DNA from: Escherichia phage 241
DNA length: 64,000 nt
Direction: 5' to 3' (one strand)
Sequence record: OR924452
The notes beneath the pieces are model-generated. The model was given only the letters and a program-made list of their open reading frames with translations. It ran no database searches and was not told where the DNA came from. Position numbers and translations under genes: made by a program. Shown piece after piece: positions 2,967-62,156 of this stretch (positions are counted from its first letter, which is position 1; each line of letters begins with the position of its first letter).

Positions 2967-2974
2967 CTAAATAT
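2967..2974 (+). promoter_or_regulatory. late-promoter-like motif CTAAATAT
   Basis: CTAAATAT about 30 nt upstream of ATG 3006; TATAAAT also present at 2978-2984. Confidence 0.4.
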
Positions 2975-3005
2975 CTCTATAAATGGCACTCGATGGAGCA
3001 TCAAA

Positions 3006-6000
3006 ATGCAATCTACAAATCTAAACCGTCGCCCGTATTGGGACGACTGGAATCCTGGAAAACGGTTTTCACGGATTCTTTTTCGCCCGATGCCTATTAA
3101 AGTTCAGACTCGTGAACTAAACCAGATGCAGACTATTCTGCAAGATCAGATTGAAAAGCTGGGAAACCATTTGTTCAAAGATGGATCTATGGTTATCCCT
3201 GGTGGTCTGACGATTACCAACGCCGCTGTATCTATGAAATTCACTCTGGCTGGCGGTACTGAGTTTACTGATCTGGAAGGGATTACTGAACTTTATGTTC
3301 TGGGAAAAGACAATAATGCCAAAGCGCGTGTGCTATCTCTTGAACGTGATCTGTCTGCTCCGGATACGATGTTGGCCATCCTTGAAATGACAGAAGTGGG
3401 TAATGCAGATGGCTTCCACGTCAACGACAATCTGTATTTCCAAACCTATGACGTCAATGACAACTTCATTCGTATTGGTTATGGTATCGCAGCTGCGGTG
3501 ACTGGTTCTATCGTCGCTCGTATGACGAAGGGCGTTTACTTCATTCGTGGGATGTTCCTTGATGTTGATGACGCGACTCTCATCGTCGATAAAACTTCAA
3601 ACACTTCTTCCCATCGCGTCGGGTTTAAAGTCACTGAAACCATCGTGACTGAATCTGAAGACGAATCCCTTTATTCAAACGCTCAGGGAACGATTAACTC
3701 CAAAGCCCCAGGCGCTCATCGTCTTCGAATAGATCTGGTCTTATCTCGATTTGATTATGATGCTGTGGTTGAAGACTTTGTTGAACTGGCCAAAGTTCGT
3801 GATGGTAAAATCCAGTCTATGGTGACTCAGTCCACCTATAATATTCTGGAAGACACGTTGGCTCAACGGACGTATGAAACCAACGGCGATTACAACGTTT
3901 CAACGCATCAGATCGACATCCGCGAACACCTGAAAGTCAATAACAATGGTGGTGTATTCAATGCTGCTGATGGCGGCGACGAAAGTAAATTCGTGTCTGT
4001 AATGAAACCAGGTATTTCCTATGTTCGCGGTCGTCGTATCGAAAACGTCGGGGAAGAGTTGGTGATCGTTGACAAGGCACGGGATACCGATGTCCTGAAT
4101 AACACGCCTGTCGCAGTTGCTACAGGGAATTATCTGGTCACCAAGAACTCCAAAGGTGTTCCAGTAATATCTCGCACTGTGCGATACAAGTTATTGAACG
4201 CATCTGGCGCTGCTCAAGCCACGGCGTTGTGTATATCCGCTGAACGCAATTCAACTGAATTCCGTCTGTACATGCGTGATTTGGTTGTGACTGGGGACGC
4301 GTCCACTATCACCAAAGTGTCTTATGAAGAAAGTGGTATCACCATGTTCTCTGCTGAACTGGAATCCAACCAGTTTAACCAGAGTTCTATGGTAGACTTG
4401 ATCTTCTCTCTTCCGGTCTTCGGTGTTAAAACATTAGCGCCAACAGGTTCCGTGGATATCAACTACACAGTCCTCAGAACTTATAAGGTGACGCTAGACA
4501 GCAGCGGTTCTGGTTCTATTTCAGCTCCGCTGGGATATAGTTTCTCTCCTGAATTTTCGTTGTATTCTTCTGCGAAATCCGATGGTTCAGAAGCGCAATT
4601 TGATATCTCTGGCTCTTTGTCACTGACTGGTTCTCCGGTGGGTTCGGCTTTGCAGATTTCCCTGGGTAGCGGTAATGCTAACCAGTCAATCAATTTGCTG
4701 GCACTGATGATCCGCACTACGGCCACGATCAAAACGAAGACGATAACTGAAACCACAGAGTCTGTGACTTTTACTTCCCAAACCAGTAGACCTCTGGCAA
4801 ATCACGACGGCTGGAAATTGGTATCTGTCAAAAATGATACTGGCGCGGACGTGACTTCGAGCTTCACCCTCGACGGTGGCCAACGCGATGCGGGATATTA
4901 CAAGGCTAATCTGTTATCCACCGCTGGAGCCATTTCAGGGACGTATACGGTGGTGTATCAATACTTCGCGCATAGTTCGGGGGATTTCTTCTCAGCGGAT
5001 TCGTATACTTCAATGGATTACAAAGATATCCCGAATTATACATCCTCCACATCAGGGGCGGTGTATGGTTTGGCCGATAGCCTTGATTTCCGTCCGAAAA
5101 TTACCAACGGGACATCCGACACTGATATGGTTCGCCCGAATACGGCTGTCATCCTGGACACAGAGTATTATTTGCCTCGTATCGACGCGATTTATCTGGC
5201 AGATAATGGCGTGTTTGGTGTAGCCCGTGGCATCAGTTCCAACAACCTGGCGTCCCCAGCAATACCTGCAAACTCCATGCGTTTGTATGAACTGTTGATT
5301 CCCCCATACACGCCGAATATCGATGATATACAAATTCGCACCATCGATAACCGTCGTTATACGATGCGTGATATCGGTAAACTGGAAACGCGTATTTCCA
5401 ACGTTGAATACTACACCTCTCTGTCGCAGCTGGAATCTTCGGCGATGACACAACAGGTATTTGATCCAATCACGGGTAATCCGCGATTCAAAAACGGTAT
5501 CGCCGCCGATCCATTCAAAGACTTCCGTCTTATTGATGATCTGTCTGAAGATTGGATGGGATCTATCGATACGGAAAATGGACGTTTGCGTCCGTTTGTT
5601 CAACAGAACGCCGTTGACATGACTCCAGTAGGCTGGAACAAAGTGATGGATGGTATGGTGGTTTGTAACTACACGCCTGAAATCTCCGTGAACCAAGAAT
5701 ACGCGACGACGACGATCAACGTTAACCCGTATGCTGTATTCAACTGGGAAGGTTTCTTGAAGATTAACCCGACCACGGATTACTGGTTTGAAAACTACTA
5801 TGTCGCCCCGCGTGTTATCAATGAAACGATCAACACTCGTGGTACTGTACAAGAAGGTTCGGTGTACGGGACGTGGCGTACTGTTTCTGTTTCTGATCGT
5901 GTTTGGGAGCCGCATGGCGCTGGTGGTGTGTGGTGGGGATACCGCTATCGCACGACTGTTTCTGCCCGTGATGTCACCACATACACATACACGGACAAAA

Positions 6001-7844
6001 CAACCACGACCATGACTGGCGAACAGATTGTGGAAACGCAGGTTATCCCATACATGCGCGAAATTGATATTTCTTTCGACGCTTCTGGGTTGCGACCTTT
6101 CACTCGCATGTATGCATTCTTCTCAGGTCGTGATGTGAATCTGTATTGCAAGCCGAATGGTGGTAATTTTGGTGACCCAATCACCACTGATGCCAATGGC
6201 GCAGTCAAAGGCGTGTTCCGCGTTCCTCAGAACGATACGATCAAGTTCAACACAGGTGACAACGTGTTCCGCTTGACGGATAGCCCCGTTGACAGTAAAT
6301 CTGCGGATGATACGCTGACTAATGCTGAAATTGTTCACAAATCTTTCGGTAAGAAACAAGGGATTCAAAAGACCTTTGTCAATACTCGAGTTCTGGGTTA
6401 TACCGCAAGCACCAGCACCGAAACCAGCACTTCTGAAGTTGTGGTCGACCAATGGCGTGATCCAATTGCCCAATCGTTTATGGTGGCAACTAAGATCGGT
6501 GGTGAATATATCGAAGGCGTGGAAGTATTCTTCTCCACCAAGTCACGTGATGTTCCGATCACCCTGGAAATTCGCGAGATGGAGAATGGCTTACCATCCC
6601 ATACCGTCATAACTCGTAAAACTTTGAACCCATCTGAGGTGACGATCTCTACAGACTCGTCTGGCGGTACGAAGTTCACCTTCGATTATCCGGTATACTT
6701 GCAAGCATCGACTGAGTTTGCTATTGTTCTGTTGGCGAATACTCAGGATTACAACGCGTATATCGCGGAAATGGGCAAGAAAAACCTTCTGTCCAACGAA
6801 TATATCGCCAAACAACCGTATACAGGGGTGTTCTTCACTTCTTCAAACGGTTCTACATGGTCTCCCAACCAGATGGCAGATATGAAGTTCCGTGTTTATC
6901 GTTGTAACTTTGCTGCTGGTCAGAACGTTGTAACATTTGATCCGAAACTTGGACCGAAACAACGTCCGCTGGGGTTGAACACTCTCAACTGTGTGAGCGG
7001 GTCTTCTGTCGTGACCGTGTTTGCACCTGGTCATGGTTTGGTTGCTGGGAACAATGTCACTCTGTCTGAATTGACAGGCGGTTGTGGCTTTACTCCTGAA
7101 CAACTTAACAAAACGTTTACTGTGACAGATGCGAGCTATACTTCATTCAAGATTGACGTCGGTTCAGCAGCAGACAGCAACGGGCAAATCGGCGGGGATA
7201 ATGCTTCGTTCTTGGGCAATTATCTGGTTGATATGTTCTATGCGAGTGTTACAAATTCAGCTCTGGAAGGTTCGATTCTGAAATTGGAATACCGTTATCG
7301 CGATGCCACTTCAAATTCTATGTCTGATTGGGCTGAGTTTGAAACTGACACTGACGTGGCGTTGCCGACTGAAGGGATCTATCGTCAGGTTGGGGATTTC
7401 CAGATCCGAGCCACCATGACGCGCAGTGAAAACAACGTGTACACCGCTCCAATGATTGATGGCGATGACCTGAGCGTAATCTTCAACTCATACGGCGTGG
7501 ATCCATTTGAAGATGTCTTCAAATATGTGACAAAAGACATCGGATTTGATAACCCATGTTCGACTGTGAAGTTGTTCTTTGGTGCAATGCTCCCATCTCA
7601 GTCTTCTATGAAGGTGCAGGTGAAACTTCTTAGAGCAGGTCAGGAGATGGATAGTGTGGCTTGGGAAGATGTTACTCCAACGTCGCCTCTGGTCAACGAC
7701 GGTTCTACATTCTTTGAATATGAATACGACAAGACTGTGGCGAGCAATAACCCGTTTGTTGGCCTGAAAGTCCGAGCGCTTGTACGGGGGAACCGCGTTG
7801 CTCCTCCATCATTCAAAGACTTCCGTCTTATTGCTCTGGCATAA
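3006..7844 (+). CDS. large virion structural protein (1612 aa), probable tail fibre / baseplate-associated adhesin
   Basis: Long uninterrupted ORF with late-promoter-like motif upstream; position between tailspike gene and neck gene 13; no specific family recognised. Confidence 0.55.
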   Translation: MQSTNLNRRPYWDDWNPGKRFSRILFRPMPIKVQTRELNQMQTILQDQIEKLGNHLFKDGSMVIPGGLTITNAAVSMKFTLAGGTEFTDLEGITELYVLGKDNNAKARVLSLERDLSAPDTMLAILEMTEVGNADGFHVNDNLYFQTYDVNDNFIRIGYGIAAAVTGSIVARMTKGVYFIRGMFLDVDDATLIVDKTSNTSSHRVGFKVTETIVTESEDESLYSNAQGTINSKAPGAHRLRIDLVLSRFDYDAVVEDFVELAKVRDGKIQSMVTQSTYNILEDTLAQRTYETNGDYNVSTHQIDIREHLKVNNNGGVFNAADGGDESKFVSVMKPGISYVRGRRIENVGEELVIVDKARDTDVLNNTPVAVATGNYLVTKNSKGVPVISRTVRYKLLNASGAAQATALCISAERNSTEFRLYMRDLVVTGDASTITKVSYEESGITMFSAELESNQFNQSSMVDLIFSLPVFGVKTLAPTGSVDINYTVLRTYKVTLDSSGSGSISAPLGYSFSPEFSLYSSAKSDGSEAQFDISGSLSLTGSPVGSALQISLGSGNANQSINLLALMIRTTATIKTKTITETTESVTFTSQTSRPLANHDGWKLVSVKNDTGADVTSSFTLDGGQRDAGYYKANLLSTAGAISGTYTVVYQYFAHSSGDFFSADSYTSMDYKDIPNYTSSTSGAVYGLADSLDFRPKITNGTSDTDMVRPNTAVILDTEYYLPRIDAIYLADNGVFGVARGISSNNLASPAIPANSMRLYELLIPPYTPNIDDIQIRTIDNRRYTMRDIGKLETRISNVEYYTSLSQLESSAMTQQVFDPITGNPRFKNGIAADPFKDFRLIDDLSEDWMGSIDTENGRLRPFVQQNAVDMTPVGWNKVMDGMVVCNYTPEISVNQEYATTTINVNPYAVFNWEGFLKINPTTDYWFENYYVAPRVINETINTRGTVQEGSVYGTWRTVSVSDRVWEPHGAGGVWWGYRYRTTVSARDVTTYTYTDKTTTTMTGEQIVETQVIPYMREIDISFDASGLRPFTRMYAFFSGRDVNLYCKPNGGNFGDPITTDANGAVKGVFRVPQNDTIKFNTGDNVFRLTDSPVDSKSADDTLTNAEIVHKSFGKKQGIQKTFVNTRVLGYTASTSTETSTSEVVVDQWRDPIAQSFMVATKIGGEYIEGVEVFFSTKSRDVPITLEIREMENGLPSHTVITRKTLNPSEVTISTDSSGGTKFTFDYPVYLQASTEFAIVLLANTQDYNAYIAEMGKKNLLSNEYIAKQPYTGVFFTSSNGSTWSPNQMADMKFRVYRCNFAAGQNVVTFDPKLGPKQRPLGLNTLNCVSGSSVVTVFAPGHGLVAGNNVTLSELTGGCGFTPEQLNKTFTVTDASYTSFKIDVGSAADSNGQIGGDNASFLGNYLVDMFYASVTNSALEGSILKLEYRYRDATSNSMSDWAEFETDTDVALPTEGIYRQVGDFQIRATMTRSENNVYTAPMIDGDDLSVIFNSYGVDPFEDVFKYVTKDIGFDNPCSTVKLFFGAMLPSQSSMKVQVKLLRAGQEMDSVAWEDVTPTSPLVNDGSTFFEYEYDKTVASNNPFVGLKVRALVRGNRVAPPSFKDFRLIALA

Positions 7845-7896
7845 ATAATGTTGAAAGGTGGGCGTAAAGCCCACCAAACCAATAGAGGATAAAGAT

Positions 7897-9481: not shown

Positions 9482-9489
9482 CTAAATAC
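9482..9489 (+). promoter_or_regulatory. late-promoter-like motif CTAAATAC
   Basis: About 22 nt upstream of ATG 9512; followed by CTTCAAAATTGAG, also seen before the sheath gene. Confidence 0.5.
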
Positions 9490-9511
9490 CTTCAAAATTG
9501 AGGGTAAAGTC

Positions 9512-11537: not shown

Positions 11538-13728
11538 TATAGAATATGCTCCGATAAAAACGGGGTTTAAAATCGACGACGTGAAATTGCGTATGGACCA
11601 GACGTTCATGCGCAAGCCTTCTGTGCGCGCTCCACGAGTCGAGTTGATGCTAACAGATGAACAAGAAGACGAATTTGTTGAATGTTCAATGGACGCACAT
11701 TACTTCGCTGCCAATTACTACAAGATAACGACAATCGATAAAGGCTTTATCCTTTTCGATATGCATGATTATCAGAAACAATTATTTCACGATTTTCAAG
11801 ATTATCGTTTCAATGCCGTTGTCCAGGCGCGTCAGTCCGGTAAATGCGTCCGTGGTGATACTCTTGTTTATGTCTATGATACAGTCAGTCAACAAGAGTT
11901 GCATCTCACCATAGAAGAGCTTCACAAGCGCTTCGAAGGACCGAACCATGCTGTGCCACTGAATACCATTGGCAACCACAATAAGTTTGTAGACAGCCGT
12001 TTCGGGAAACGATATTTTGTTGAGTCCGACACTGGCTGGGTTCCGGTTATTGCCGCTCATAAAACGAAAGAATACGCTGAATACGTGGTCAGGACTGAAA
12101 CCGGACGCACAATTCATGTCGCAGATGAGCACATGTTCTTCAATGAATATGGGCGCGAAGTATTTGCTAAAGACATGGAGGCCGGAGATGCCATAATGAC
12201 CCAGGAGGGAATAGAATTCATCTCTGAGATCTGGGAGACTGGTGAGTACCACCACATGTATGACTTGCAAGTCAAGTCCAGCGATCAACGTTATTACACG
12301 AATGGGTTCCTCAGCCATAATACCACGGTCGTGGCTGCGTTTCTTCTTTGGTATGCGATGTTCCACTCAGACAAAGAAATCGCGGTACTGGCAAACAAAG
12401 AGAAACAAGCGATTGAAATTCTTGACCGTATCAGGAAGGCGTATCAGGACCTCCCATTCTTCCTTCAGCAGGGTTGTGAGAAGTTTGGTTCTACACTGAT
12501 AGAGTTTGAGAACGGCTCTAAGATATATGCTTATGCAACGTCTTCGGACTCTATTCGTGGTCGTTCTGTATCTCTCTTGTACGTGGACGAAGTCGCGTTC
12601 ATCGAAAATGACTTTGAATTTTGGGAATCAACATTCCCAGCGATCGCATCTGCTGATACTTCACGTTGTATTCTTACCAGTACTCCGAAAGGCCAGCGAG
12701 GGTTGTTCTATGATATCGTCACCAAAGCAGACCCGCGCCATCCACAATACAACGATTTCCATCTTACCGAAGTCCCTTGGTACAAGGTTCCGGCGTACAC
12801 CAAAGACCCTGATTGGGAAACCAAACAACGCGCTCGTCTGGGGGATGCCCGTTTTGACCAGGAATTTGGAATCAAGTTCCGTGGTTCTGTAGGTTCATTG
12901 ATACCAGCCAAATGCTTGGATAAAATGACATCCAAGTTATATCGAGAGCCTAATGAGTTCACCAAAATTTACAAGGAATATGACCCGCAACGCATCTACT
13001 TCGGGATTGCAGATACGGGGAAAGGTGTTGAAGGAGATTATTCGGTTCTGACAATTCTGGATATAACGGAATACCCGCATGTCATAGCGGCCAAGTACAG
13101 GAACAATACAATACCTCCGATGATGTATGCATACACGATAGCTGATATGTGTACTGAATACGGGGAGTGTCCAGTCCTTGTAGAAACCAACAACGACGTT
13201 GGTGGACAGGTTATTACAATCTTGTATCAAGAAATTGAGTATCCAGAGATTATATTCACGTCGACGGATAACAAAGGGACAGGGAAACGGATTGGTGGTC
13301 GTAAACCAGAGCCAGGCATTAACACCAACAGGAAAGTGCGATCTATTGGTTGTGCTAACCTGAAAGCGCTTATTGAGAAAGAAATGTTGGTGATCGAAGA
13401 CCAAGACACGATAGATGAACTCAGCACATTCGTGTTCCGTGGTGCGCGTTATGAAGCAGATGATGGATGTCACGACGACTGCGTTATGCCGTTGGTATTA
13501 TATTCTTGGGCAGTTAAACAAGAATGGTTCAGTGATCTGACTTCTACCAGTATTTCTCAAGACATGAGAAATAGAATGTCTTCGACTGAGTCACAACAAG
13601 TATTCCCATTTGGTGGTTTAGTCGTGGGAGACACTCCATCTGGAACTGAGCATCTCCCTGGGTTCGGTGGTGTTCAAGTCTTCGACGAACGTTCAGGGAT
13701 GACAATGGACGAGTGGTTTAAGAATTGA
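11518..13728 (+). CDS. terminase large subunit, T4 gp17-like, interrupted by a mini-intein
   Basis: RFNAVVQARQSGK...TTVVAAFLLWYAMF matches T4 gp17 [24 protein letters not shown] once residues 110-268 are removed. Confidence 0.9.
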   Translation: MAYQKRDIEYAPIKTGFKIDDVKLRMDQTFMRKPSVRAPRVELMLTDEQEDEFVECSMDAHYFAANYYKITTIDKGFILFDMHDYQKQLFHDFQDYRFNAVVQARQSGKCVRGDTLVYVYDTVSQQELHLTIEELHKRFEGPNHAVPLNTIGNHNKFVDSRFGKRYFVESDTGWVPVIAAHKTKEYAEYVVRTETGRTIHVADEHMFFNEYGREVFAKDMEAGDAIMTQEGIEFISEIWETGEYHHMYDLQVKSSDQRYYTNGFLSHNTTVVAAFLLWYAMFHSDKEIAVLANKEKQAIEILDRIRKAYQDLPFFLQQGCEKFGSTLIEFENGSKIYAYATSSDSIRGRSVSLLYVDEVAFIENDFEFWESTFPAIASADTSRCILTSTPKGQRGLFYDIVTKADPRHPQYNDFHLTEVPWYKVPAYTKDPDWETKQRARLGDARFDQEFGIKFRGSVGSLIPAKCLDKMTSKLYREPNEFTKIYKEYDPQRIYFGIADTGKGVEGDYSVLTILDITEYPHVIAAKYRNNTIPPMMYAYTIADMCTEYGECPVLVETNNDVGGQVITILYQEIEYPEIIFTSTDNKGTGKRIGGRKPEPGINTNRKVRSIGCANLKALIEKEMLVIEDQDTIDELSTFVFRGARYEADDGCHDDCVMPLVLYSWAVKQEWFSDLTSTSISQDMRNRMSSTESQQVFPFGGLVVGDTPSGTEHLPGFGGVQVFDERSGMTMDEWFKN
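11845..12321 (+). mobile_element. mini-intein (159 aa) inserted in terminase Walker A motif between Lys and Thr of GKT
   Basis: Insert begins with Cys (CVRGDTLV), ends with His-Asn (FLSHN) and is followed by Thr; flanking exteins rejoin to a canonical P-loop; too short for an endonuclease domain. Confidence 0.8.
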
Positions 13729-13731
13729 TCA

Positions 13732-13739
13732 CTAAATAT
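13732..13739 (+). promoter_or_regulatory. late-promoter-like motif CTAAATAT
   Basis: About 40 nt upstream of sheath ATG 13781; followed by CTTTCAAATTGAG. Confidence 0.5.
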
Positions 13740-15732: not shown

Positions 15733-16191
15733 ATGATATACGCATACAAAATTGAAATGGTTTGTAATGGAAAGGTCTACATCGGTGTGACCAATGACCC
15801 ACAACGAAGATATGATCAGCATTTTGCGAATGCCTTTCATCATGGAGTCCAAAGTGAATTGTATGACGCCATGCGTAAGTATGGAACATCTGGATTTACT
15901 TTCGTTGTAATTGCTCAGACCGATGAAGTCCATAAATGGGAATTAGAGAAGCAACTCATCGCTCAATATAATTCTTATGAGATGGGTTACAACATGAATA
16001 AAGGCGGTAATGATGGAAGTCATATGCTGGGTAAAACTGCAGCAAAATTGACATCCACAGGTGAACACATTGGTCTTGTTTCTCTCATAGATCCCCGTTG
16101 GGAATTGTGTGAAATCGAACCTGTTTCAAGTAATGTTCACCATGGTTTCGATCTTTCTTCTATGAAGATTAAAAGATTGACGACTAATTAG
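15733..16191 (+). CDS. GIY-YIG homing endonuclease (free-standing)
   Basis: N-terminal IYAYKIEMVCNGKVYIGVTNDPQRRYDQH matches GIY-x10-YIG with conserved Arg/His; inserted between sheath and tube genes. Confidence 0.7.
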   Translation: MIYAYKIEMVCNGKVYIGVTNDPQRRYDQHFANAFHHGVQSELYDAMRKYGTSGFTFVVIAQTDEVHKWELEKQLIAQYNSYEMGYNMNKGGNDGSHMLGKTAAKLTSTGEHIGLVSLIDPRWELCEIEPVSSNVHHGFDLSSMKIKRLTTN

Positions 16192-16755: not shown

Positions 16756-16822
16756 TGTCCTCGGTGCTGGGGGAATCATATTCCCCCTCACTAATTACAA
16801 GAAAATGTTGAGGACTTAGATC

Positions 16823-18512: not shown

Positions 18513-18520
18513 CTAAATAT
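18513..18520 (+). promoter_or_regulatory. late-promoter-like motif CTAAATAT
   Basis: About 25 nt upstream of ATG 18547. Confidence 0.45.
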
Positions 18521-19730: not shown

Positions 19731-19738
19731 CTAAATAC
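19731..19738 (+). promoter_or_regulatory. late-promoter-like motif CTAAATAC
   Basis: About 27 nt upstream of ATG 19766. Confidence 0.45.
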
Positions 19739-20605: not shown

Positions 20606-20696
20606 TTTTAGCAGCCACAGCCCTCGAAAGGGGGCTTGATTTTGAACTACTAAGTAATTTCAACTTAACTGAATATCAATGTAAGGAACGAGCATC

Positions 20697-23922: not shown

Positions 23923-23947
23923 ATTTAAAATTTATTCAATAAACGGG

Positions 23948-23976
23948 GTTTACTTCTTCAATAAACCCCGTATACT
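23948..23976 (+). promoter_or_regulatory. sigma70-like early promoter (-35 GTTTAC, -10 TATACT, 17-nt spacer)
   Basis: GTTTACTTCTTCAATAAACCCCGTATACT; same architecture repeated at 58621 and 42577/42929. Confidence 0.5.
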
Positions 23977-24881: not shown

Positions 24882-25304
24882 ATGAAGAAATATGTCGTGC
24901 TCATTACAGGTTCCCGCTCAATAACCGAGCGGGATAAAATCTTCGCCAAACTGGATGAACTGTTAGATCCCCACGAGATCGAAACTTTTATAGAAGGTGA
25001 AGCGGTTGGTGTGGACTTGATATCTCGTGATTGGTGTGAAATCAATTATGTCCATGTTACGCCAATGGGGATCCCTAAGGATTATCACACGATATATGGG
25101 AAAGGCGCAGGAAACCAACGTAACAAAGATATGTTAGACAAAGCTACAACCCTGGCCAAACAAAAAGGTCTTGAGGTCTTTGGAATTGCGTTATGGGATG
25201 GTTCGTCTACTGGGACGCAAGACATGATTACCCGCATGAAAAAAGCAGGAGTCAATGTCAATATCACTCTCATGGGCAAACCCAAAACCAAACGATTGTT
25301 ATAA
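24882..25304 (+). CDS. possible SLOG-family (LOG/DprA-like) nucleotide-binding protein
   Basis: N-terminal VVLITGSRS and GxxxGxD pattern suggest a Rossmann-like SLOG fold; weak. Confidence 0.35.
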   Translation: MKKYVVLITGSRSITERDKIFAKLDELLDPHEIETFIEGEAVGVDLISRDWCEINYVHVTPMGIPKDYHTIYGKGAGNQRNKDMLDKATTLAKQKGLEVFGIALWDGSSTGTQDMITRMKKAGVNVNITLMGKPKTKRLL

Positions 25305-25326
25305 ATATGTTTGCCTTCACACCCAT

Positions 25327-25509: not shown

Positions 25510-25540
25510 TTATAAATACCCCCAAAATTGGGGGTATTTT

Positions 25541-28691: not shown

Positions 28692-28695
28692 ATAC
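28688..28695 (+). promoter_or_regulatory. late-promoter-like motif CTAAATAC
   Basis: About 25 nt upstream of uvsW ATG 28720 (uvsW is a late gene in T4). Confidence 0.45.
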
Positions 28696-39960: not shown

Positions 39961-42177
39961 ATGATTGAATCATTAACATTTAAAAATGCGGTAGCAACCG
40001 TCGCGCCGTCTAACCATGTAATCGTTGTGGATATCTCCGGTTCCATGTACCGTTCACTTCCTGAAGTTCGCAAGCATCTGAAGGAAAATCTCCCGTCTCT
40101 GGTTAAACCAGAAGATACCGTCAGCATTCTTTACTTTTCATCCCGTGGTGATTTCGGTACGGTATTCGCTGGCCGTCAGATCAATAGCGCGACCGATCTC
40201 AGTGAAATCAATAAACTGATTGACCGCTTCCTGCAACCGTCCGGTTGTACGGGATTTGTAGAACCTCTGAAGTTGGCTGCTGAAACCGCGTTGAGCCTGA
40301 ACAAACCTGGTTATGTCAATAACCTGGCGTTCATGACCGACGGCTATGACAACTGCTGGCGCTCGAATGAAATTCTGGCAGCAGCTGAAGTACTGCCCAA
40401 GGCGTTCGATAATATTACATTCATCGAATATGGCTGGTACTGTAACCGCGAACTTCTGGCCCTGATGTCCGAGCGTTCTGGCGCGACTCACGTGTTTGCC
40501 GAAGGTCAGACTGAATATCAGACCGAACTGGAAAACGTACTGAAATCATCTACGCCGAAAGTGGTTGTTGATGTTCCCCTGGTTTACACTCATGCCATTT
40601 ACGTTGAAAACGGCGTGGCAACTGTGCTAGCCGTACAACCCGATGAAGAACACCCGATTGGCCACGTCAGCATCCCTGAAAGCGTTTCTCAGCTGTGGGT
40701 TGTAAACCCTGACATGATCGACCAGCTGGATAATCTGGCAGACACCCAGGCGGCATACGTGCTGGCATTCTATGGCGTGTACACCATGGACGCCGATCTG
40801 GTCTGGGCCGCGCTGAAGAAGACGGGTGACGTCCGCTTCATCAAACAATACAGCAACTGTTTCACCAAGCAGGACTATTCCAACATCAAAGTCGATCTGA
40901 CCCAGGCTATCGTGGATGAAACTCTGCGCGGCGTAGATGGCATCGATTACAATATGGTTCCAGCTGAAGATGCAACGACCATTGTTGATGTCTTGACCTA
41001 CCTGGCCGAAGCCGATGTCTCTGTTGTCACTAAGCATCCGCTGTTCTCTTACAACAGCATCGGTCGCGGTACTGTGCAGAAAGTTGATGACACTGAAGAC
41101 AAGCTGGCTGAACAAATCGCCGAAGCCAAAACCAAAGCAGAGCGTAAAGCGCTGGCTCTCAAACTGGCTGAGCACGAAGATTGGACGCCGGAATTTACTC
41201 CGGTTGATGACAAAGGGATTGTCCCAATTAGCAATCTGGTCTACAATTCAGAGCGCCCTAACATCAGCATTCAGACCGTTCAGCATGGGACGGTTGTTGT
41301 GCCGGAGTTCGTACAGAAGAAATATGAACTCCCTGAAGAACTGGGAACCTGGCGTTATCGTAATTACACCATCGTCAAAGATGGAATCATCAACCTGAAG
41401 ACGATGCCGATTACTGCCGAATCTCCGATTGTCCGAGCTAAGGTTGTCCAAGATTTGATCGCCATGGGCGTTAATGTATTTGGTGGACCGGAAATCTTCA
41501 TCGTTAATTTAGAAAGTGTTCCGATGGTCAACCGCGCCATGACCAAGAACATCAGTGCTGCCGAATTCTTCGCTGACAACGTTCGTCGCGAAGCGCTGAA
41601 GGCAAAACAGAAAGTTCTGAAATTCTATCGTGATGAACTGGTTGGCAAAGGCAATGCAACTGGTCTGGCTTCTAAATATGGTAAAGAAGCCGCCGATTTC
41701 TTGTCGGCAAATGGCATTCGCGACTACGGGTTCTCGCCGAAAACTACTTCTGTGGAATCAACCGATGTCTACATGAGCCGTGAGCTGAATGTGAAAATCA
41801 AAGGTGCTTCGTCGCTGCCGAGCATTGCGTCAGTTATCAAAAAGCAAGCAGATGGTAAAAAACTGAATGTCGCTGATCAGTTGATTGCCAATGCTCTGGC
41901 CGAATACGACGCTTTTGTTAAATCTCCAATGATCACCAGCGTACCTGAAGAGACTCAGAAAAAGCTGATTGAAAGCTGGATCGGAGACGCAGCAAAAGCG
42001 GCCATTAACGAAGTCCGCGCCCTGAACAAAACGCTGTCTAAAGTCGTTTACGGCATCGTCGCTGGTCATGGTTGGTTCACTGATTTGGATCTGGAAGAGT
42101 CTACGATGGATGTAGAAGTTGATGGGGTGAAATACACCGTCACTGCCGAACTGGCCGAAAAAGAAATCAAAATCTAA
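39961..42177 (+). CDS. von Willebrand factor type A (vWA) domain protein with long C-terminal extension
   Basis: MIDAS motif VVDISGSM (DxSxS) and downstream MTDGYDN; ATG 39961 preferred over upstream GTG 39925. Confidence 0.65.
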   Translation: MIESLTFKNAVATVAPSNHVIVVDISGSMYRSLPEVRKHLKENLPSLVKPEDTVSILYFSSRGDFGTVFAGRQINSATDLSEINKLIDRFLQPSGCTGFVEPLKLAAETALSLNKPGYVNNLAFMTDGYDNCWRSNEILAAAEVLPKAFDNITFIEYGWYCNRELLALMSERSGATHVFAEGQTEYQTELENVLKSSTPKVVVDVPLVYTHAIYVENGVATVLAVQPDEEHPIGHVSIPESVSQLWVVNPDMIDQLDNLADTQAAYVLAFYGVYTMDADLVWAALKKTGDVRFIKQYSNCFTKQDYSNIKVDLTQAIVDETLRGVDGIDYNMVPAEDATTIVDVLTYLAEADVSVVTKHPLFSYNSIGRGTVQKVDDTEDKLAEQIAEAKTKAERKALALKLAEHEDWTPEFTPVDDKGIVPISNLVYNSERPNISIQTVQHGTVVVPEFVQKKYELPEELGTWRYRNYTIVKDGIINLKTMPITAESPIVRAKVVQDLIAMGVNVFGGPEIFIVNLESVPMVNRAMTKNISAAEFFADNVRREALKAKQKVLKFYRDELVGKGNATGLASKYGKEAADFLSANGIRDYGFSPKTTSVESTDVYMSRELNVKIKGASSLPSIASVIKKQADGKKLNVADQLIANALAEYDAFVKSPMITSVPEETQKKLIESWIGDAAKAAINEVRALNKTLSKVVYGIVAGHGWFTDLDLEESTMDVEVDGVKYTVTAELAEKEIKI

Positions 42178-42533: not shown

Positions 42534-42537
42534 CAGA

Positions 42538-42566
42538 AGTCCCCAACAAACCGTTGGGGATTTTTA
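42538..42566 (+). terminator. rho-independent terminator
   Basis: CCCCAAC-AAACC-GTTGGGG hairpin followed by ATTTTTACTTTT. Confidence 0.65.
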
Positions 42567-42655
42567 CTTTTAGGGGGTTTACTCTAGAGAAAGGATACCC
42601 TATTATCCAATAACACCAAACGTCGGGTTTGGTATTTGAAATGAAGGAATATAAT
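42556..42655 (+). repeat. direct repeat copy A (promoter plus 5' leader), about 100 bp
   Basis: GGGGATTTTTACTTTTAGGGG..TTTAC...CCTATTAT..CAATAAC shared with copy B. Confidence 0.6.
42577..42606 (+). promoter_or_regulatory. sigma70-like early promoter (-35 GTTTAC, -10 TATTAT)
   Basis: GTTTAC, 17-18 nt spacer, TATTAT; within repeat copy A. Confidence 0.45.
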
Positions 42656-42874
42656 ATGGCTATCTCACAAACCGTTGACCTCAAACCGTTTCATCTTAAC
42701 AACTTACCAAACGTGAAACTGGTACTATACAAAGATCCCTCAAATTTTTGTTGGGTGGCCAGTTGTGACACACATAACAACCGCCGTGCTGTTTGGGACT
42801 TCCCTCCAACAGACGAAGGGCGTGTTGAGGCCATCCGAAAACTAGAATTTGAAAATCTAAAACGGACAGCCTGA
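42656..42874 (+). CDS. hypothetical protein (73 aa)
   Basis: ATG 42656 with GAAATGAAGGAATATAAT-ATG context. Confidence 0.45.
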   Translation: MAISQTVDLKPFHLNNLPNVKLVLYKDPSNFCWVASCDTHNNRRAVWDFPPTDEGRVEAIRKLEFENLKRTA

Positions 42875-42892
42875 GATACCAAATAACAGAAA

Positions 42893-42925
42893 TCCCCAAT
42901 AATTTATTGGGGATTTTTACTTTTA
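42893..42925 (+). terminator. rho-independent terminator
   Basis: CCCCAAT-AATTT-ATTGGGG hairpin followed by ATTTTTACTTTT. Confidence 0.6.
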
Positions 42926-43003
42926 GGGGTTTACTTCTTCTAACGAATATCCTATTATTCAATAACTGGCTAACGTGGGGTTGGCTAGAAAAGGAGATAC
43001 AAA
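42909..43003 (+). repeat. direct repeat copy B (promoter plus 5' leader)
   Basis: Imperfect copy of 42556-42655. Confidence 0.6.
42929..42958 (+). promoter_or_regulatory. sigma70-like early promoter (-35 GTTTAC, -10 TATTAT)
   Basis: Within repeat copy B. Confidence 0.45.
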
Positions 43004-43821: not shown

Positions 43822-43858
43822 ACTAACTAAGGGATAACCATATATCCCGAGGTGTGTC

Positions 43859-49063: not shown

Positions 49064-50785
49064 GTGACAGCATTTAATCAATACCGAAAGGCAATTGACG
49101 CCATAGGCCGTAAGGTTCCTATAGAAGAAATACAAAGCCTTGCCAAAAACGAATTTCCATATGACAAGGCGAACCAAGGCCAGATGGAATGTATCGTCGA
49201 AGCCGTTGATGCCTTGGTCAACAAAAAGGTCAAACACGTGATCATTGAAGCCCCAACTGGCGTGGGGAAATCTTTGATTGGGACAACAATTCATAAAGTG
49301 ATTCGCCATTTGGTTTTACAGGCCGATCCTTATGGGCAATTCCGCACGTCTATCAGTACGCCCACCAAAGGTCTACAAGATCAGTATGCTGCTGAAAAGG
49401 CGGTGGCGATAGACATCCTGAAAGGCAAGAAGAACTATCGTTGCCACGTACACCCAGATGTGTATTACAACGCCGTGCAATGCCGTATAGCATGCCGCGA
49501 CGGGCATTGTAGCAAACGCCGTTGTCCTTATGTACAGGCGCGCAATTTATGGACTGATATTTCGTCATTGCGTTGCACTAATGCAGCTATGATGATTGAG
49601 ATGTGCACCACCATCTGTATGAAGCCTGAAAACCGTTCCGATATGCTGATCTTAGACGAGTGTCATAAGATGCCCTCTACGCTCCTAGAGCACACGATAA
49701 TGGAATACAATACAAAGGCTGTGGATGGGCTGCGAACTATCCCCGAAGGGAAGGAGATAGTCTCTATCATTGCCGATATCGTAGAACGCACCAAGGACTA
49801 TGTCTTGGGCAAGTTGTATTCCTTGTCCGGTGAAATGCATTCGATGTTTGAAGACCTCCATCTTAAAGTGGAGTCTTTGTTGGAAGTTCTTGAAGAATTG
49901 GTTGAAGATGACCGCCTGAGTGAAAGCCAGGTGATGAAACTCGCCGACATTATCGATGTACTACACAATCTGAGTGATTATTGTGGTATTATGTCTCAGA
50001 CAAAGGCCAGCACCTTTATCGTACAGGAAAAGGGAGATGACTTTATTCGGTTTAAACCCGTCATGCCTTCTGATGTAAGTGAATTTGGATTGTTCAGGAA
50101 AGCCGATTACCATGTTCATATGTCGGCAACAATCTGCGGAATCGATTCATATGCCCGTTCCTTGGGTATCCGCCAGGGGGATTATCATTCAATACAGATT
50201 GGAAATCCAATCCCAATTGAAAATCGGAAAGTCAACTATATGCCCATCGTTAAGATGACCAACAACATGGGCGATTATGAAATGAAAAGGCTGACGGAAT
50301 ACATTGATGAAATAATCGCATTCCATCCAGGGCAATCTGGCATCATACATACAGTGAGCTATGATCGCGCATTAGCAATACAAAAATTCAGCAAATACCA
50401 GAACTTTATCCATGTGCCACGCACCCGAAAGGCGTTGATGGATATTATGGAAAATGCCTTCAGGACAAAAACACCTTGTGTTATTGCCAGTCCGGCCATG
50501 GAAGAAGGATATGACTTCAAAGGTGATTACAGCCGATTCCAAATACTGATCAAAGTTCCTTACGATTATTTGGGTGATCCATTGATCGCACATATTAATT
50601 CAGTGGATCCGTCTGCGTACTTCCGCAACGCAGTATTGCGCATTGTTCAGATGTGCGGACGTTCGGTCAGGGGTGTGGATGACTGGGCTGCAACATACAT
50701 AATCGATTCTTCCTTTGAATCTCTTATGATGCGCAACCCAGAGTTCTTCCCAACCTGGTTCACCGATGCAGTATTTGAAGTTTAA
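49064..50785 (+). CDS. DinG/XPD-like superfamily 2 helicase with Cys-rich (putative Fe-S) insertion
   Basis: Walker A IIEAPTGVGKS, DEAH-type box LILDECHKM, Cys cluster CHVHPDVYYNAVQCRIACRDGHCSKRRCPY between them; GTG start with AAAGGAGG RBS. Confidence 0.65.
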   Translation: MTAFNQYRKAIDAIGRKVPIEEIQSLAKNEFPYDKANQGQMECIVEAVDALVNKKVKHVIIEAPTGVGKSLIGTTIHKVIRHLVLQADPYGQFRTSISTPTKGLQDQYAAEKAVAIDILKGKKNYRCHVHPDVYYNAVQCRIACRDGHCSKRRCPYVQARNLWTDISSLRCTNAAMMIEMCTTICMKPENRSDMLILDECHKMPSTLLEHTIMEYNTKAVDGLRTIPEGKEIVSIIADIVERTKDYVLGKLYSLSGEMHSMFEDLHLKVESLLEVLEELVEDDRLSESQVMKLADIIDVLHNLSDYCGIMSQTKASTFIVQEKGDDFIRFKPVMPSDVSEFGLFRKADYHVHMSATICGIDSYARSLGIRQGDYHSIQIGNPIPIENRKVNYMPIVKMTNNMGDYEMKRLTEYIDEIIAFHPGQSGIIHTVSYDRALAIQKFSKYQNFIHVPRTRKALMDIMENAFRTKTPCVIASPAMEEGYDFKGDYSRFQILIKVPYDYLGDPLIAHINSVDPSAYFRNAVLRIVQMCGRSVRGVDDWAATYIIDSSFESLMMRNPEFFPTWFTDAVFEV

Positions 50786-51549
50786 TAACCTGCAATAAAC
50801 GATAAATGGCACTTGATATTTGGTTCAAGTGTCGTTATCGTGATGATCATATTATCCACATCTTGGCTGAAAGATATATTTGCTATTGGTTTAGTCTGAA
50901 CGTGGTTGTACAGGCTGTATATCAAATCTTCACCACGGTATCCGACTTTACCATCAGTATCCTGCCAATGGCCTAACGTGGATTCATGAGCATGTACTCG
51001 GAATTCTATCATATGGAACAATGCTTTTGGGATTGTTTTCAGTATGCTGGTTCCGACAACAGGGATATCAATAGCAGAGTCGTTGGAATTGCCCTCATAT
51101 ACTGACGCCCAACCAAATGTTGGATCTCCCCCCGCTACTGGAGTTCTCTTCCAGTATTGGAATTCCGGATTTCCAGCAGCATTCTTTTGTAGAAGGATAA
51201 CTTCACCGCCTTCAAAATTAGAAGTGTCTATATCATCACGTGCTAATAAATCAGCTGGAGAACCAATAAATTTCCAGGTTTCGCGATCTAAAATAGACTT
51301 ATAATAATCGGTGAATACGTTACTGTCGTCAGCTGCGTTGATTGCGTCTTTAAGACCTTCACCTGTGACCATCTCATTGAGTTTTAGCCACATGTTTTTG
51401 ACAGCTGACGCAGCTGCGACTTGACCTTCAGTCCCACCCGCCGTGTAGTCATAAACGATGTCCAGCTTTTGTATGGAATCATTTATAGACAAGAGCAAAC
51501 GCTCAATTTCTGGGGCGGTCAGACTGAAACGATATGCGCGTTCTGACAT
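50782..51549 (-). CDS. hypothetical protein (255 aa, minus strand)
   Basis: Opposite-strand ORF between helicase and RNase H genes. Confidence 0.45.
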   Translation of the reverse strand: MSERAYRFSLTAPEIERLLLSINDSIQKLDIVYDYTAGGTEGQVAAASAVKNMWLKLNEMVTGEGLKDAINAADDSNVFTDYYKSILDRETWKFIGSPADLLARDDIDTSNFEGGEVILLQKNAAGNPEFQYWKRTPVAGGDPTFGWASVYEGNSNDSAIDIPVVGTSILKTIPKALFHMIEFRVHAHESTLGHWQDTDGKVGYRGEDLIYSLYNHVQTKPIANISFSQDVDNMIITITTLEPNIKCHLSFIAGY

Positions 51550-51591
51550 GATTCGTTCCTCATCGATAAAACCAGTTTGGGATACTTATAC

Positions 51592-52130: not shown

Positions 52131-52901
52131 ATGGGTATGAATTTTGTAGACAGGGGTGATAACGTCACCAAATATTTCACTGACGAAGATAATGATCGAG
52201 TTGTGGGGATATTGCGTGATTGGATCCCTGCTCGTAAAAAGGCATTAGCCGAAGGAACACCCCTACCAAGAATCCCCAATTACGTGGCCATGAATGTTCA
52301 GATGATAATCAAGAATATGAGTATGCGCTACAACTACCGTGATTATCCATATCGTGAAGACATGGTGAGTGAAGCGGTTGTGAACATCCTTCGTTACCTT
52401 CACACCTTTGACGTTAGCCATATCGGCAAGAAAGGAAAGATCAACTTCTTCTCTTGGGTGACTATGTGTGCCGATCGATCATTCGCCAAGAAACTCACGA
52501 GTGAAGAAGAACACAACTACATTAAATTGCGTTCCTTTGAAGAAGCAGGTGGGTTCGCAGCTTTATCGGATGACCCAGACTTCCAACAACAAACCTTCGT
52601 TGATAGCACTGGGATAACGATGGACTTTCGTGAACGCATCGGTAATTTCGAAAATAAGAAAGAAGCCCAGCGTGAAAAGGAACGCCAAAAGCAAACGGCT
52701 ATCAAAGAAGAGGAAAAGAATAAGAAAATCCCTCGCGGTATACTTCAATGTCTTACGAAGAGTGAAAATACCATTACCGCTGACGCCGAAGATAATTCAG
52801 ATAATGACTTCGGCTCTACTCAATTTAGTCTTGAAGATATAATGGACAGCCCCACATTGTTAGCCGAATCAGTTGGAGAAAAGAATAATGGCGATTGCTA
52901 A
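52131..52901 (+). CDS. late-transcription sigma factor, T4 gp55-like
   Basis: ILRDW, NILRYLHTFD and NFFSWVTMCADRSFAKKL parallel T4 gp55 IIDWKTEL, IKGLHNFD, AYITQACFNAFVQRIKKE; upstream of genes 47/46 as in T4. Confidence 0.6.
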   Translation: MGMNFVDRGDNVTKYFTDEDNDRVVGILRDWIPARKKALAEGTPLPRIPNYVAMNVQMIIKNMSMRYNYRDYPYREDMVSEAVVNILRYLHTFDVSHIGKKGKINFFSWVTMCADRSFAKKLTSEEEHNYIKLRSFEEAGGFAALSDDPDFQQQTFVDSTGITMDFRERIGNFENKKEAQREKERQKQTAIKEEEKNKKIPRGILQCLTKSENTITADAEDNSDNDFGSTQFSLEDIMDSPTLLAESVGEKNNGDC

Positions 52902-57245: not shown

Positions 57246-57270
57246 AAGGGCACTAAATATCAAGTGCCCT
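57246..57270 (+). terminator. hairpin terminator enclosing a late-promoter-like motif
   Basis: AGGGCAC-TAAATATCAA-GTGCCCT followed by TTATCTTTT. Confidence 0.5.
57253..57260 (+). promoter_or_regulatory. late-promoter-like motif CTAAATAT
   Basis: Lies in the loop of the hairpin, about 75 nt upstream of ATG 57338. Confidence 0.4.
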
Positions 57271-57337
57271 TTATCTTTTAACCCTGTCAGGAGGCTCAAT
57301 CGAGCTGCAAGTCGACAAACACATAAGGAACGCCATC

Positions 57338-57955
57338 ATGACGATGACAACGTTGAAGGCCATGGCCTTGTCCGTGACCTTTACCATTGCCAGCGGGAGT
57401 GTGCACGCTTCCCAAAGTACCACCCAATGTGATTACGAATTTTCTGATCAGCAACTTTCAACTATGGCCACTGCCTATCACATAGGCAAACAGCAAGACC
57501 TTGGTTTCACCCTAGCCGCGATATCATGGAGGGAAAGCCGCGCCGGAGAAGATGTGGTATCCATGCGGAATAACCTGAAATCGGCTAATATGGGGGCATT
57601 CCAAAATCGAGTCCAAACCGTTGGGAAACGGGAGGGATGCAAAACACAGAAGTGTTACGCCAACGTGGCGATTAAATTGCTGGTCAATCAAGAGTACGCA
57701 GCCAATGCAGCCCTTGATGAAATGAATTTCTGGCTTGGGTATCATAACCAAAACATCCGCAAATCGCTCTCCTCTTACAATGCCGGTTTCAGTCGTAACC
57801 AAAAATCCAATTCATACGCTGCTGATGTCGTGAAGAAGGCTAAATATCTTCAACGATGTGTGTCTTTCAAAGGCATGGCAATAAACCCGAAGGTCGACCC
57901 AGGAGTGATCGCCATGAATAAGCGCACGATTGAGAAACTCAAGAGGACCCGATAA
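57338..57955 (+). CDS. lytic transglycosylase (SLT domain) with N-terminal signal sequence; endolysin candidate
   Basis: Signal-like MTMTTLKAMALSVTFTIASGSVHA; SLT motifs WRESRAG (catalytic Glu-Ser), SANMGAFQ, SSYNAGF. Confidence 0.65.
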   Translation: MTMTTLKAMALSVTFTIASGSVHASQSTTQCDYEFSDQQLSTMATAYHIGKQQDLGFTLAAISWRESRAGEDVVSMRNNLKSANMGAFQNRVQTVGKREGCKTQKCYANVAIKLLVNQEYAANAALDEMNFWLGYHNQNIRKSLSSYNAGFSRNQKSNSYAADVVKKAKYLQRCVSFKGMAINPKVDPGVIAMNKRTIEKLKRTR

Positions 57956-58593: not shown

Positions 58594-58620
58594 ATTATTC
58601 AATAAAAGGGGCAAACGCCC

Positions 58621-58649
58621 CTTTACTTCTTCAATAACCCACGTATAAT
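58621..58649 (+). promoter_or_regulatory. sigma70-like early promoter (-35 CTTTAC, -10 TATAAT, 17-nt spacer)
   Basis: CTTTACTTCTTCAATAACCCACGTATAAT following a GGGGC-AAAC-GCCCC hairpin. Confidence 0.5.
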
Positions 58650-59066: not shown

Positions 59067-59147
59067 TACGAATATGCGGGGGCTTGATGCCCCTTTCTTT
59101 TCGCTAATTAAGGAAAACCGCACCGATTTATTATCAGGAGAATTACA

Positions 59148-61532: not shown

Positions 61533-61540
61533 TCATCAAG

Positions 61541-61552
61541 CCCCTTCGGGGG
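61541..61552 (+). terminator. short hairpin
   Basis: CCCC-TTCG-GGGG immediately before the late-promoter-like motif. Confidence 0.35.
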
Positions 61553-61560
61553 CTAAATAC
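61553..61560 (+). promoter_or_regulatory. late-promoter-like motif CTAAATAC
   Basis: About 20 nt upstream of ATG 61582. Confidence 0.45.
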
Positions 61561-61581: not shown

Positions 61582-62130
61582 ATGATGAAACCGTTTATCG
61601 AATATTTTAAAGAACAAGCCCAGCAGCCGCAAACTCATGGCGGTATACAAGGCAAAAGTGTAACCATCACTAAACAAGCCGATGGAACACAATGGTGCTC
61701 CGGCGCTACCGTGACCCAGATCACTCCTGACAATCAGGCCGATGTCTATAATCTGGAATTGACTAATGGCAACACCATCAAAGTGAAGCTAACTCCAGAC
61801 CAGACCCACGGCATTACCCAAGGCCAAGAAGTTGTTGCCGTCCATGATGGTTTTGAATTTTTCTTCGGCAAGTCAGCTGACAAAGGTCAGGTTACTGAAG
61901 CGGAAGGCTGGCGTTTCGTCGGTGACCGTGGCGCTCATATTCTGATGTATGACGCAAAAGTTGGCGGTGCCTCCACTATCCTTCGCAGTCCAACAGATCG
62001 AACCAAATTTGTTGGTGGTCTCATCAACGGTAGAAAAATTTTGGGTAATTCCCCAGAAGAACTGGCGGCAAAATTAGGTCTTCCAAAAATTCCTGATAAT
62101 TTATTAAAATCGTTTTTTGGTAAAAAGTGA
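61582..62130 (+). CDS. hypothetical protein (182 aa) paralogous over a C-terminal module to the 794-aa protein
   Basis: ATG 61582 with AGGAGA RBS preferred over non-ATG start 61435; C-terminal SPEELAAKLGLPKIPDNLLKSFF. Confidence 0.5.
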   Translation: MMKPFIEYFKEQAQQPQTHGGIQGKSVTITKQADGTQWCSGATVTQITPDNQADVYNLELTNGNTIKVKLTPDQTHGITQGQEVVAVHDGFEFFFGKSADKGQVTEAEGWRFVGDRGAHILMYDAKVGGASTILRSPTDRTKFVGGLINGRKILGNSPEELAAKLGLPKIPDNLLKSFFGKK

Positions 62131-62148
62131 TTATAAAATACAATCCCC

Positions 62149-62156
62149 CTAAATAC
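62149..62156 (+). promoter_or_regulatory. late-promoter-like motif CTAAATAC inside hairpin
   Basis: CCCCCT-AAATACA-GGGGG hairpin with motif in the loop, 30 nt upstream of ATG 62187. Confidence 0.4.

Follow-up and report, generated by a model that had tools for sequence, protein, structure and literature searches.

What marks the late genes in a stretch of phage DNA whose genes lie almost wholly on one strand? In the 64,000-nucleotide (nt) stretch of Escherichia phage 241 analyzed here (sequence record OR924452; the whole stretch is called the window), the motif CTAAATA(C/T) recurs a short distance upstream of genes for virion proteins, and a preliminary description of this DNA proposed that it is a late promoter differing from the consensus of phage T4, TATAAATA. 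The window holds 82 genes, 78 of them on the plus strand, and 5.5% of it is intergenic DNA; its gene annotation was transferred from phages CBA120 and Mooltan. Pieces of 12 kb and 25 kb from the window are 98.8-99.6% identical to Salmonella phages PS5, Mooltan, and Marshall, and the match of Vi01 to these pieces is 99.3% identical. Judged by this similarity, the window is from a Kuttervirus, that is, a Vi01-like phage of the family Ackermannviridae. The motif is very probably a late promoter that would be read by a gp55-like sigma factor on the host core RNA polymerase. What carries this reading is observed directly in the DNA: the motif, its position, its orientation, its conservation, the classes of gene that follow it, and the presence of a gp55 gene. 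The idea of such a promoter has already been published, and the finding is correct but ordinary; the sole part that might add something new is an arrangement in which the promoter is built into a hairpin.

The motif is more frequent than chance would provide and is oriented with the genes. CTAAATAY has 11 exact matches in the window, 11 on the plus strand and 0 on the minus strand, against an expectation of 3.09 for both strands in dinucleotide shuffles; at least 11 matches were reached in 0 of 100 shuffles. All nine sites listed in the preliminary description are present, 21-77 nt upstream of start codons. These sites, at 2967, 9482, 13732, 18513, 19731, 28688, 57253, 61553, and 62149, lie about 31, 22, 41, 26, 27, 24, 77, 21, and 30 nt, respectively, upstream of the starts at 3006, 9512, 13781, 18547, 19766, 28720, 57338, 61582, and 62187. 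Eight of the nine are fully intergenic, and the remaining one, at 28688, shares bases with the stop codon of the exonuclease gene immediately preceding uvsW. Position relative to genes is equally marked: 8 of the 11 copies of CTAAATA fall 18-49 nt upstream of plus-strand starts, a zone comprising 3.85% of positions (binomial p = 7e-10). Concentration in this zone is highest for CTAAATA out of the 5,583 heptamers present five or more times, and TAAATA is the most enriched intergenic hexamer of the window.

Variants of the motif show the same placement. The canonical T4 sequence TATAAATA occurs twice in the window, which is the chance level, and both copies (25300 and 25511) lie 21-31 nt upstream of starts. 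Heptamers of the form CTAA[C/G/T]TA are under-represented overall (7 observed against 12.8 expected), and all 6 of their plus-strand copies are found 25-40 nt upstream of starts. Taken with these variants, the window contains about 19 credible sites. C is the commonest base at position -12 (15 of 18 window sites), A and T substitute for it at orthologous sites, two perfect TATAAATA copies are present, and G is never found at -12 at a promoter-positioned site. A is favored at -13 (10 of 18 sites), and the predicted transcription start (+1) falls in A-rich sequence, A occupying +1, +2, and +3 in 10, 13, and 11 of the 18 sites.

Comparison of the regions upstream of orthologous genes covered six genomes in five genera: the window and CBA120 (both Kuttervirus), Magnus (Taipeivirus), RC-2014 (Limestonevirus), 3M (Miltonvirus), and Bue1 (Nezavisimistyvirus). 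Across these five genera CTAAATA is kept at orthologous sites before the VrlC-like gene, gp14, gp18, a prohead open reading frame (ORF), gp22, and uvsW, as the flanks diverge. At 2967-2973 (plus strand, as are all sites below unless stated), the predicted late promoter of the VrlC-like gene of 1612 amino acids (start 3006) is the same in all six genomes, and a terminator hairpin at 2917-2938 lies about 30 nt before it. The predicted late promoters of the gp14 neck gene (9482-9488; start 9512) and of the gp18 tail sheath gene (13732-13738; start 13781) are each kept in five of the six. Five genomes also have CTAAATA at 18513-18519, the predicted late promoter of the small ORF at 18547 heading the gp68/gp21 prohead-core genes, and the remaining one has CTAAGTA. 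Before the gp22 scaffold gene (start 19766), CTAAATAC, containing the predicted late promoter at 19731-19737, is invariant in all six. The copy at 28688-28694 precedes the UvsW helicase gene (start 28720) by about 25 nt and is kept in the four genomes compared there.

The sites given in the preliminary description stand, yet that list was incomplete: about ten more sites differ from CTAAATA in the fifth base or have A or T in place of C at -12, including those upstream of gp19, gp20, and the gp23 major capsid gene. CTAATTA precedes the gp19 tail tube gene (start 16222) by 31 nt, at 16184-16190, and the gp20 portal gene (start 16823) by 25 nt, at 16791-16797. CTAAGTA is found at 20650-20656, 40 nt upstream of the gp23 gene (start 20697). 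In 3M (Miltonvirus) and Bue1 (Nezavisimistyvirus), CTAAATA replaces the variant at all three aligned positions, the third within CTAAATAT. With moderate confidence, the ATAAATA at 7841-7847 can be added; it overlaps the VrlC stop codon 49 nt upstream of gene 7897, which matches PHROG 4322, a virion structural protein. Its orthologs read ATAAATA in Kuttervirus and Taipeivirus, TTAAATA in Miltonvirus, and ATAAGTA in the two other genera. One perfect T4-type TATAAATA, at 25300-25307, overlaps a stop codon about 31 nt upstream of a 56-amino-acid ORF at 25339. The other, at 25511-25518, is fused to a hairpin at 25514-25539 about 21 nt upstream of gene 25541, and here the base at -12 is C, A, or T depending on the genus (CTAAATA, ATAAATA, or TTAAATA). 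C at -12 is thus, as far as the aligned sites go, a preference and not a requirement.

Between gp22 and gp23, just upstream of the CTAAGTA heptamer, the six genomes also share a conserved hairpin, GCCCTCGAAAGGGGGC (20606-20650). It has no clear U-tract and could be an RNA-stabilizing or processing element for the capsid mRNA.

Annotation of the related phage LIMEstone1 (NC_019925) agrees with several of these sites. Its record places 'putative late promoter' features on the TAAATA hexamers at the orthologs of 51583 (minus strand), 61553, and 62149, and the genes downstream of these orthologs and of that of 43823 are labeled 'confirmed structural protein'. The CTAACTA at 43823-43829 lies 29 nt upstream of gene 43859, and the surrounding CTAACTAAGGGATA is kept in LIMEstone1 upstream of ORF101. 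On the minus strand, ATAAGTA (TATAAGTA) at 51583-51589 precedes gene 50782-51549 by 33 nt; the LIMEstone1 ortholog, which has TATAAATA, is the putative promoter annotated for ORF093. TATAAATA also takes the place of the CTAAATA at 61553-61559, a site directly after a hairpin (61540-61553) and about 22 nt upstream of gene 61582, and is the putative promoter annotated for ORF080. At 62149-62155 the CTAAATA sits in the loop of a terminator-like hairpin (62142-62165) about 31 nt upstream of gene 62187, which encodes a DUF5856 protein; the hairpin, AATCCCCC-TAAATAC-AGGGGGATT, is identical in LIMEstone1, where it is assigned to ORF078. The CTAATTA at 59104-59110 follows a terminator-like hairpin (59078-59094) and lies 37 nt upstream of a 794-amino-acid gene (59148), to which the LIMEstone1 'confirmed structural protein' genes ORF081 and ORF082 correspond by position only. 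The CBA120 record has no annotated promoter features.

Three further copies of CTAAATA are less regular in their setting. That at 57253-57259 lies in a hairpin about 78 nt upstream of an SLT-like gene (start 57338). An intragenic copy at 57840-57846, 108 nt upstream of structural gene 57955, is ambiguous: it is conserved in LIMEstone1 but encodes Ala-Lys-Tyr-Leu, and may reflect either an internal promoter or coding constraint. The intragenic copy at 41672-41678, 542 nt from the next start and not conserved in LIMEstone1, is probably a chance occurrence. The SLT-like gene itself (57338-57955) is called 'RegB' in relatives. Its match to the Pfam SLT lytic transglycosylase domain is borderline (E = 2.7e-4, just below the cut-off) and its PHROG is one of unknown function, which makes the 'RegB' label doubtful; it stands behind the conserved, predicted late promoter in the hairpin.

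Since the window is almost wholly one-stranded, the other 97 kb of Vi01 served as an independent test. There, 8 of 12 copies of CTAAATA lie 23-39 nt upstream of starts on the same strand, three on the plus strand and five on the minus strand. The genes they precede are gp48, gp6, three tail fibre/spike genes, two virion protein genes, and a RuvC-like resolvase gene. At like distances, ATAAATA or TTAAATA is found before the late genes gp26, gp5, gp2, a gp54-like gene, and the endolysin gene of Vi01, the sites at gp26 and the gp54-like gene being of the T4 type TATAAATA. Within the window, the sites in sense orientation precede gp14, gp18, gp19, gp20, gp22, gp23, the VrlC-like gene, and structural protein genes.

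T4 late promoters are read by gp55 together with gp33 and the gp45 sliding clamp, which acts as a co-activator of this type of transcription. The phages considered here likewise encode homologs of these proteins. The gp55-like late sigma factor noted in the preliminary description at 52131-52901 (plus strand) is borne out by its match to PHROG 234, 'late sigma transcription factor' (E = 1.1e-53). A gp45-like sliding clamp gene lies at 30907-31575 (plus strand) according to the annotation of Mooltan, a near-identical (99%) phage, and gp33 is found outside the window, annotated in the close relative Vi01 as Vi01_069c. The homolog of 256 amino acids is strongly diverged from gp55 of T4 and bears a family-specific C-terminal extension. 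In a tblastn search, matches annotated as late sigma factors come from Ackermannviridae, from cyanophages, and from further T4-like phages, with T4-type coliphages absent at E <= 1e-3. Only the first ~150-170 residues align with gp55 from outside Ackermannviridae, at 23-30% identity, and sequence searches of Pfam and the PDB gave no match. The identity to gp55 of Aswh_1, a presumably Aeh1-like Aeromonas phage, is only about 26%. The C-terminal ~80 residues (~175-256) of the homolog are conserved only within Ackermannviridae.

How does the proposed promoter compare with those already characterized? In T4, TATAAATA spans positions -13 to -6, and in Aeromonas phage Aeh1 the late consensus CTAAATA begins at -12, the C at this position being its distinguishing feature (Nolan et al., 2006; PMC1524935). 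The sites of the window share with T4 the TAAATA core, a short architecture with a -10 element only, and a location 20-50 nt upstream of virion genes. However, T4 has A at -12 and T at -13, whereas here C is commonest at -12 and A is favored at -13, and unlike in T4, T, G, or C can occupy the fifth position of the heptamer at several conserved sites. As the heptamer begins at -12, C replaces the second base of the T4 octamer, which is the first of the heptamer ATAAATA. The preliminary description, supported by the sequence in calling the motif a late promoter, therefore needs correction in naming the first base as the one that differs. The heptamer of Aeh1 is identical to that of the window from -12 onward, although Aeh1 belongs to another lineage, the large T4-like Aeromonas phages; its gp55 is substantially diverged from other gp55 sequences (PMC1524935). 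Unlike in the Aeh1 motif, C alternates freely with A and T at orthologous sites in Ackermannviridae, and at this position the gp55 of the family appears to tolerate C, A, and T and to exclude G.

In the proposed mechanism, the phage gp55-like sigma factor on the host core RNA polymerase would read a -10-type late promoter, and gp33 and the gp45 sliding clamp would assist by analogy with T4. The consensus would be a-[C>A>T]-TAA-[A>T,G,C]-TA, with the heptamer at -12 to -6 and without a -35 element. The predicted start of transcription falls about 6 nt after the last A, within A-rich sequence. The resulting leaders of 17-44 nt would stand ahead of genes for virion proteins, morphogenesis, and a few late DNA-processing functions.

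It is very unlikely that the motif is instead a -10 element for host sigma-70 or belongs to the early or middle promoters of the phage. TAAATA has a high AT content and some loose resemblance to TATAAT, and the phage does have sigma-70-like promoters, such as TTTACT-16-TATAAT at 58622-58649. However, a logo of the window sites, in which the TAAATA core is invariant at the 11 CTAAATA sites, has no conserved upstream element or -35 partner and in particular no -35-like hexamer 16-18 bp upstream; in a sigma-70 scan of the window, no hexamer pair coincides with a motif site. Moreover, the genes downstream encode virion rather than early proteins, and the early-type promoters form a class of their own, TTTACT...TTCAATAA...TATAAT, upstream of small hypothetical genes. 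The missing -35 element and the absence of scan matches at the sites led to the rejection of a sigma-70 promoter.

This second intergenic class, TTTACT-(TC)TTCAATAA-...-TATAAT/TATACT, usually comes directly after a terminator hairpin. TTCAATAA has 11 plus-strand copies, 10 of the 11 intergenic, and the class is seen at 23935-23976, 35760-35790, 42958, 46252, 48585, and 58598-58649. It looks like the early sigma-70-type promoter of the family. It is probably related to the published motif 'TTCAAT[N14]TATAAT', though the spacing here does not fit N14.

Late promoters of this family have been described before. Adriaenssens et al., writing in 2012 in Arch Virol on 'Viunalikevirus', are said to have introduced CTAAATAcCcc as a late-promoter consensus. 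The same sequence is given in PMC7283392 as one of a pair of regulatory motifs for Ackermannviridae. The window belongs to this family and has this motif, its CTAAATA core being present in 11 copies; of the cCcc extension, the form CTAAATACCCC has 0 copies in the window and CTAAATACC has 1. CTAAATACCCC is typical of the tail-spike module, which lies outside the window. The extension is present at tail-spike and virion genes of Vi01, where it forms the arm of a predicted hairpin complementary to the Shine-Dalgarno sequence. For LIMEstone1, 33 late promoters were reported (PMC3296691), a number similar to the ~35 found here in the window and the rest of Vi01 together. In phage AG3, late promoters were predicted from TATAAATA with one mismatch, a search that led to the consensus TNT(N3)A(N10)C(N2)ATNAATA, and homologs of gp55, gp33, and gp45 were noted (PMC3121705).

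The association of some sites with hairpins raises another explanation, in which the motif is primarily an RNA or terminator element, or a binding or cleavage site for another phage protein, and its likeness to TATAAATA is coincidental. The motif does lie within hairpins annotated as terminators in relatives at 25511, 57253, and 62149, and the published cCcc extension is the 5' arm of such hairpins. At each of these three sites a GC-rich hairpin with a U-tract encloses the motif (25514-25539, 57246-57271, and 62142-62165). The hairpin at 57253, whose loop and stem contain the motif, has a T-rich run after it; the Mooltan annotation labels it a terminator, and it is conserved together with the motif in LIMEstone1. 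Yet most motif sites have no such hairpin (e.g., 2967, 13732, 18513, 19731, and 20650), and a terminator-only element was rejected because just three window sites are inside one. Furthermore, the conserved part is the heptamer and not the stem: at the LIMEstone1 orthologs of two hairpin sites, TAAATA is kept and the base at -12 changes. A gp55 homolog with matching known specificity is also encoded, and this explanation is given very little probability. Least credible, and close to negligible, is the view that AT-rich intergenic DNA and TAA stops at gene ends produce the motif as a side effect, with no regulatory role: overlap with stop codons at 5 of about 20 sites and the depletion of TAA-containing words in coding DNA (the deficit of CTAABTA given above) fit it, but it was rejected on the first rank of CTAAATA among heptamers in the zone upstream of starts, the fully intergenic location of most sites apart from the stop codon, the exact heptamer being kept in five genera as neighboring intergenic bases change, and the switching of the motif's strand with its gene in Vi01.

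Some points weigh against a late promoter. The motif contains TAA, and the sites at 7841, 16184, 25301, 28688, and 33065 overlap stop codons, so gene ends could supply part of the apparent intergenic enrichment of the weaker variants. The CTAAGTA at 33065-33071, located where the gp62 gene ends, 30 nt before regA, is uncertain and may be a chance match; neither regA nor nrdA of Vi01, which has a TTAAATA 81 nt ahead of it, is obviously a late gene. Apart from these two sites, replication genes have no motif. In the searchable literature, neither experimentally mapped transcript 5' ends nor data on the timing of expression were found for an Ackermannviridae phage, and we therefore infer promoter activity, the +1 position, and dependence on gp55, along with the binding of the motif by gp55-RNA polymerase and late timing, from the DNA.

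At some of the late promoters proposed here, motif and ribosome-binding site are joined by a hairpin. The extension shared by the sites at 9482 and 13732 (CTTCAAAATTGAG and CTTTCAAATTGAG), pointed out in the preliminary description, is present and belongs to a hairpin. At 9482 the hairpin (9488-9505; ACCTTCAAAATTGAGGGT) pairs with the Shine-Dalgarno sequence of gp14, and the predicted +1 falls inside its 5' arm. Similarly, the hairpin AAATACCCCC/GGGGGTATTT at 25514-25539, annotated as a terminator in relatives, holds the Shine-Dalgarno sequence of gene 25541. At 28688, the leader hairpin pairs with the Shine-Dalgarno sequence of uvsW, the predicted +1 again lying in the 5' arm. The same design, AATACCCC...GGGGTATT, is found in Vi01 at the endolysin gene, three tail fibre/spike genes, and two virion genes.

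Leader folding was examined for the set of ~35 late sites from the window and the rest of Vi01. Of the 35 late sites, 10 have a leader with a minimum free energy of -10 kcal/mol or lower, compared with 43 of the 516 controls matched for distance (Fisher p = 8e-4). In read-through RNA, the pairing probability of the Shine-Dalgarno sequence is 0.64 for late genes and 0.54 for controls (p = 0.002), and it drops to 0.46 in the predicted late RNA. Two results count against such a layer of control: taken over all late sites, leader stability does not differ significantly from that of the controls (Mann-Whitney p = 0.07), and covariation is minimal even in the best case, the stem AAAUACCCC/GGGGUAUUU before gene 25541, which is invariant in the six genomes save for one compensatory inner pair. 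Sites built in this way tentatively make up about a quarter to a third of all sites; the general effect is weak, and the arrangement is retained for a subclass only.

In this subclass, the last bases of the motif would open the 5' arm of the hairpin (..AATACCCC), and the Shine-Dalgarno sequence would lie in the 3' arm (GGGGTATT..ATG). Read-through RNA arriving from upstream would fold, leading to termination or to a hidden ribosome-binding site. Late RNA would not fold; because the predicted +1 is inside the 5' arm, it is predicted to be unstructured. Sites of the form (C/A/T)TAAATACCCC...GGGGTATTTT-ATG, which would make up a conserved subclass of Ackermannviridae late promoters, could be three-in-one elements, each combining a late promoter with a terminator of early RNA, a means of hiding the ribosome-binding site, or both, a possibility that we hold tentatively and with some doubt. 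The members of the subclass are the window sites 9482, 25511, and 28688 and the Vi01 genes named above. A comparable case has reportedly been known since 1986, when McPheeters et al. are said to have located the late promoter of T4 gene e (lysozyme) inside a hairpin whose folding in early read-through RNA occludes the ribosome-binding site. The likeness lies in the predicted +1 in the 5' arm and the Shine-Dalgarno sequence in the 3' arm at 9482, 25511, 28688, and the endolysin and tail-spike genes of Vi01. In contrast to gene e, the structures here come from folding prediction, and some of the hairpins carry a U-tract and may also terminate transcription. Were the proposal true, the cCcc tail of the published consensus would be an arm complementary to the Shine-Dalgarno sequence rather than a polymerase contact. 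Control of the gene e type would extend to the whole family Ackermannviridae, and endolysin, tail spikes, and other late proteins would stay untranslated from early read-through RNA.

Vi01-like phages are widely used for the biocontrol of Salmonella and E. coli O157. The analysis supports, on the strength of sequence comparison, a T4-style late system for these phages, consisting of a tiny promoter with a -10 element only and a gp55-like sigma factor. Current understanding is unchanged by this result. With sites at the capsid, portal, and tail-tube genes included, the list is fuller than that of the preliminary description, which helps both annotation and the engineering of late-expressed payloads.

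Several other features of the window concern mobile or variable DNA. In the annotation of near-identical relatives, the large terminase gene contains an intein (11845-12321), and a GIY-YIG homing endonuclease gene lies between gp18 and gp19 (15733-16191). The same junctions hold different homing endonuclease insertions in other genera. At 42534-43003, a 470-bp 'intergenic' stretch is ~360 bp longer than its counterpart in Mooltan and contains two near-identical units of terminator hairpin and promoter-like sequence (CAGAAnTCCCCAA...TTGGGGATTTTTACTTTTAGGGG(G)TTTACT) around a small unannotated ORF. The arrangement resembles a small gene cassette that has been inserted between the copies of a duplicated terminator-promoter unit. 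In Mooltan, denV is found just downstream of the counterpart of this stretch, and it is absent from the window.

A last recurrent word belongs to translation starts. ATCATGA is the top intergenic heptamer, with 15 plus-strand copies of which 11 are at gene starts, and the start-codon context ...GGA(A)nnnnATC-ATG-A is strongly conserved at gene starts throughout the window. The 'PHIRE regulatory elements' reported for the non-coding strand of phage PhiSH19 (e.g., TTGCCATGATGTATTTCCTT) differ from the late motif and read as the reverse complement of the Shine-Dalgarno sequence and the ATCATG start context, rather than as a regulatory element of their own.

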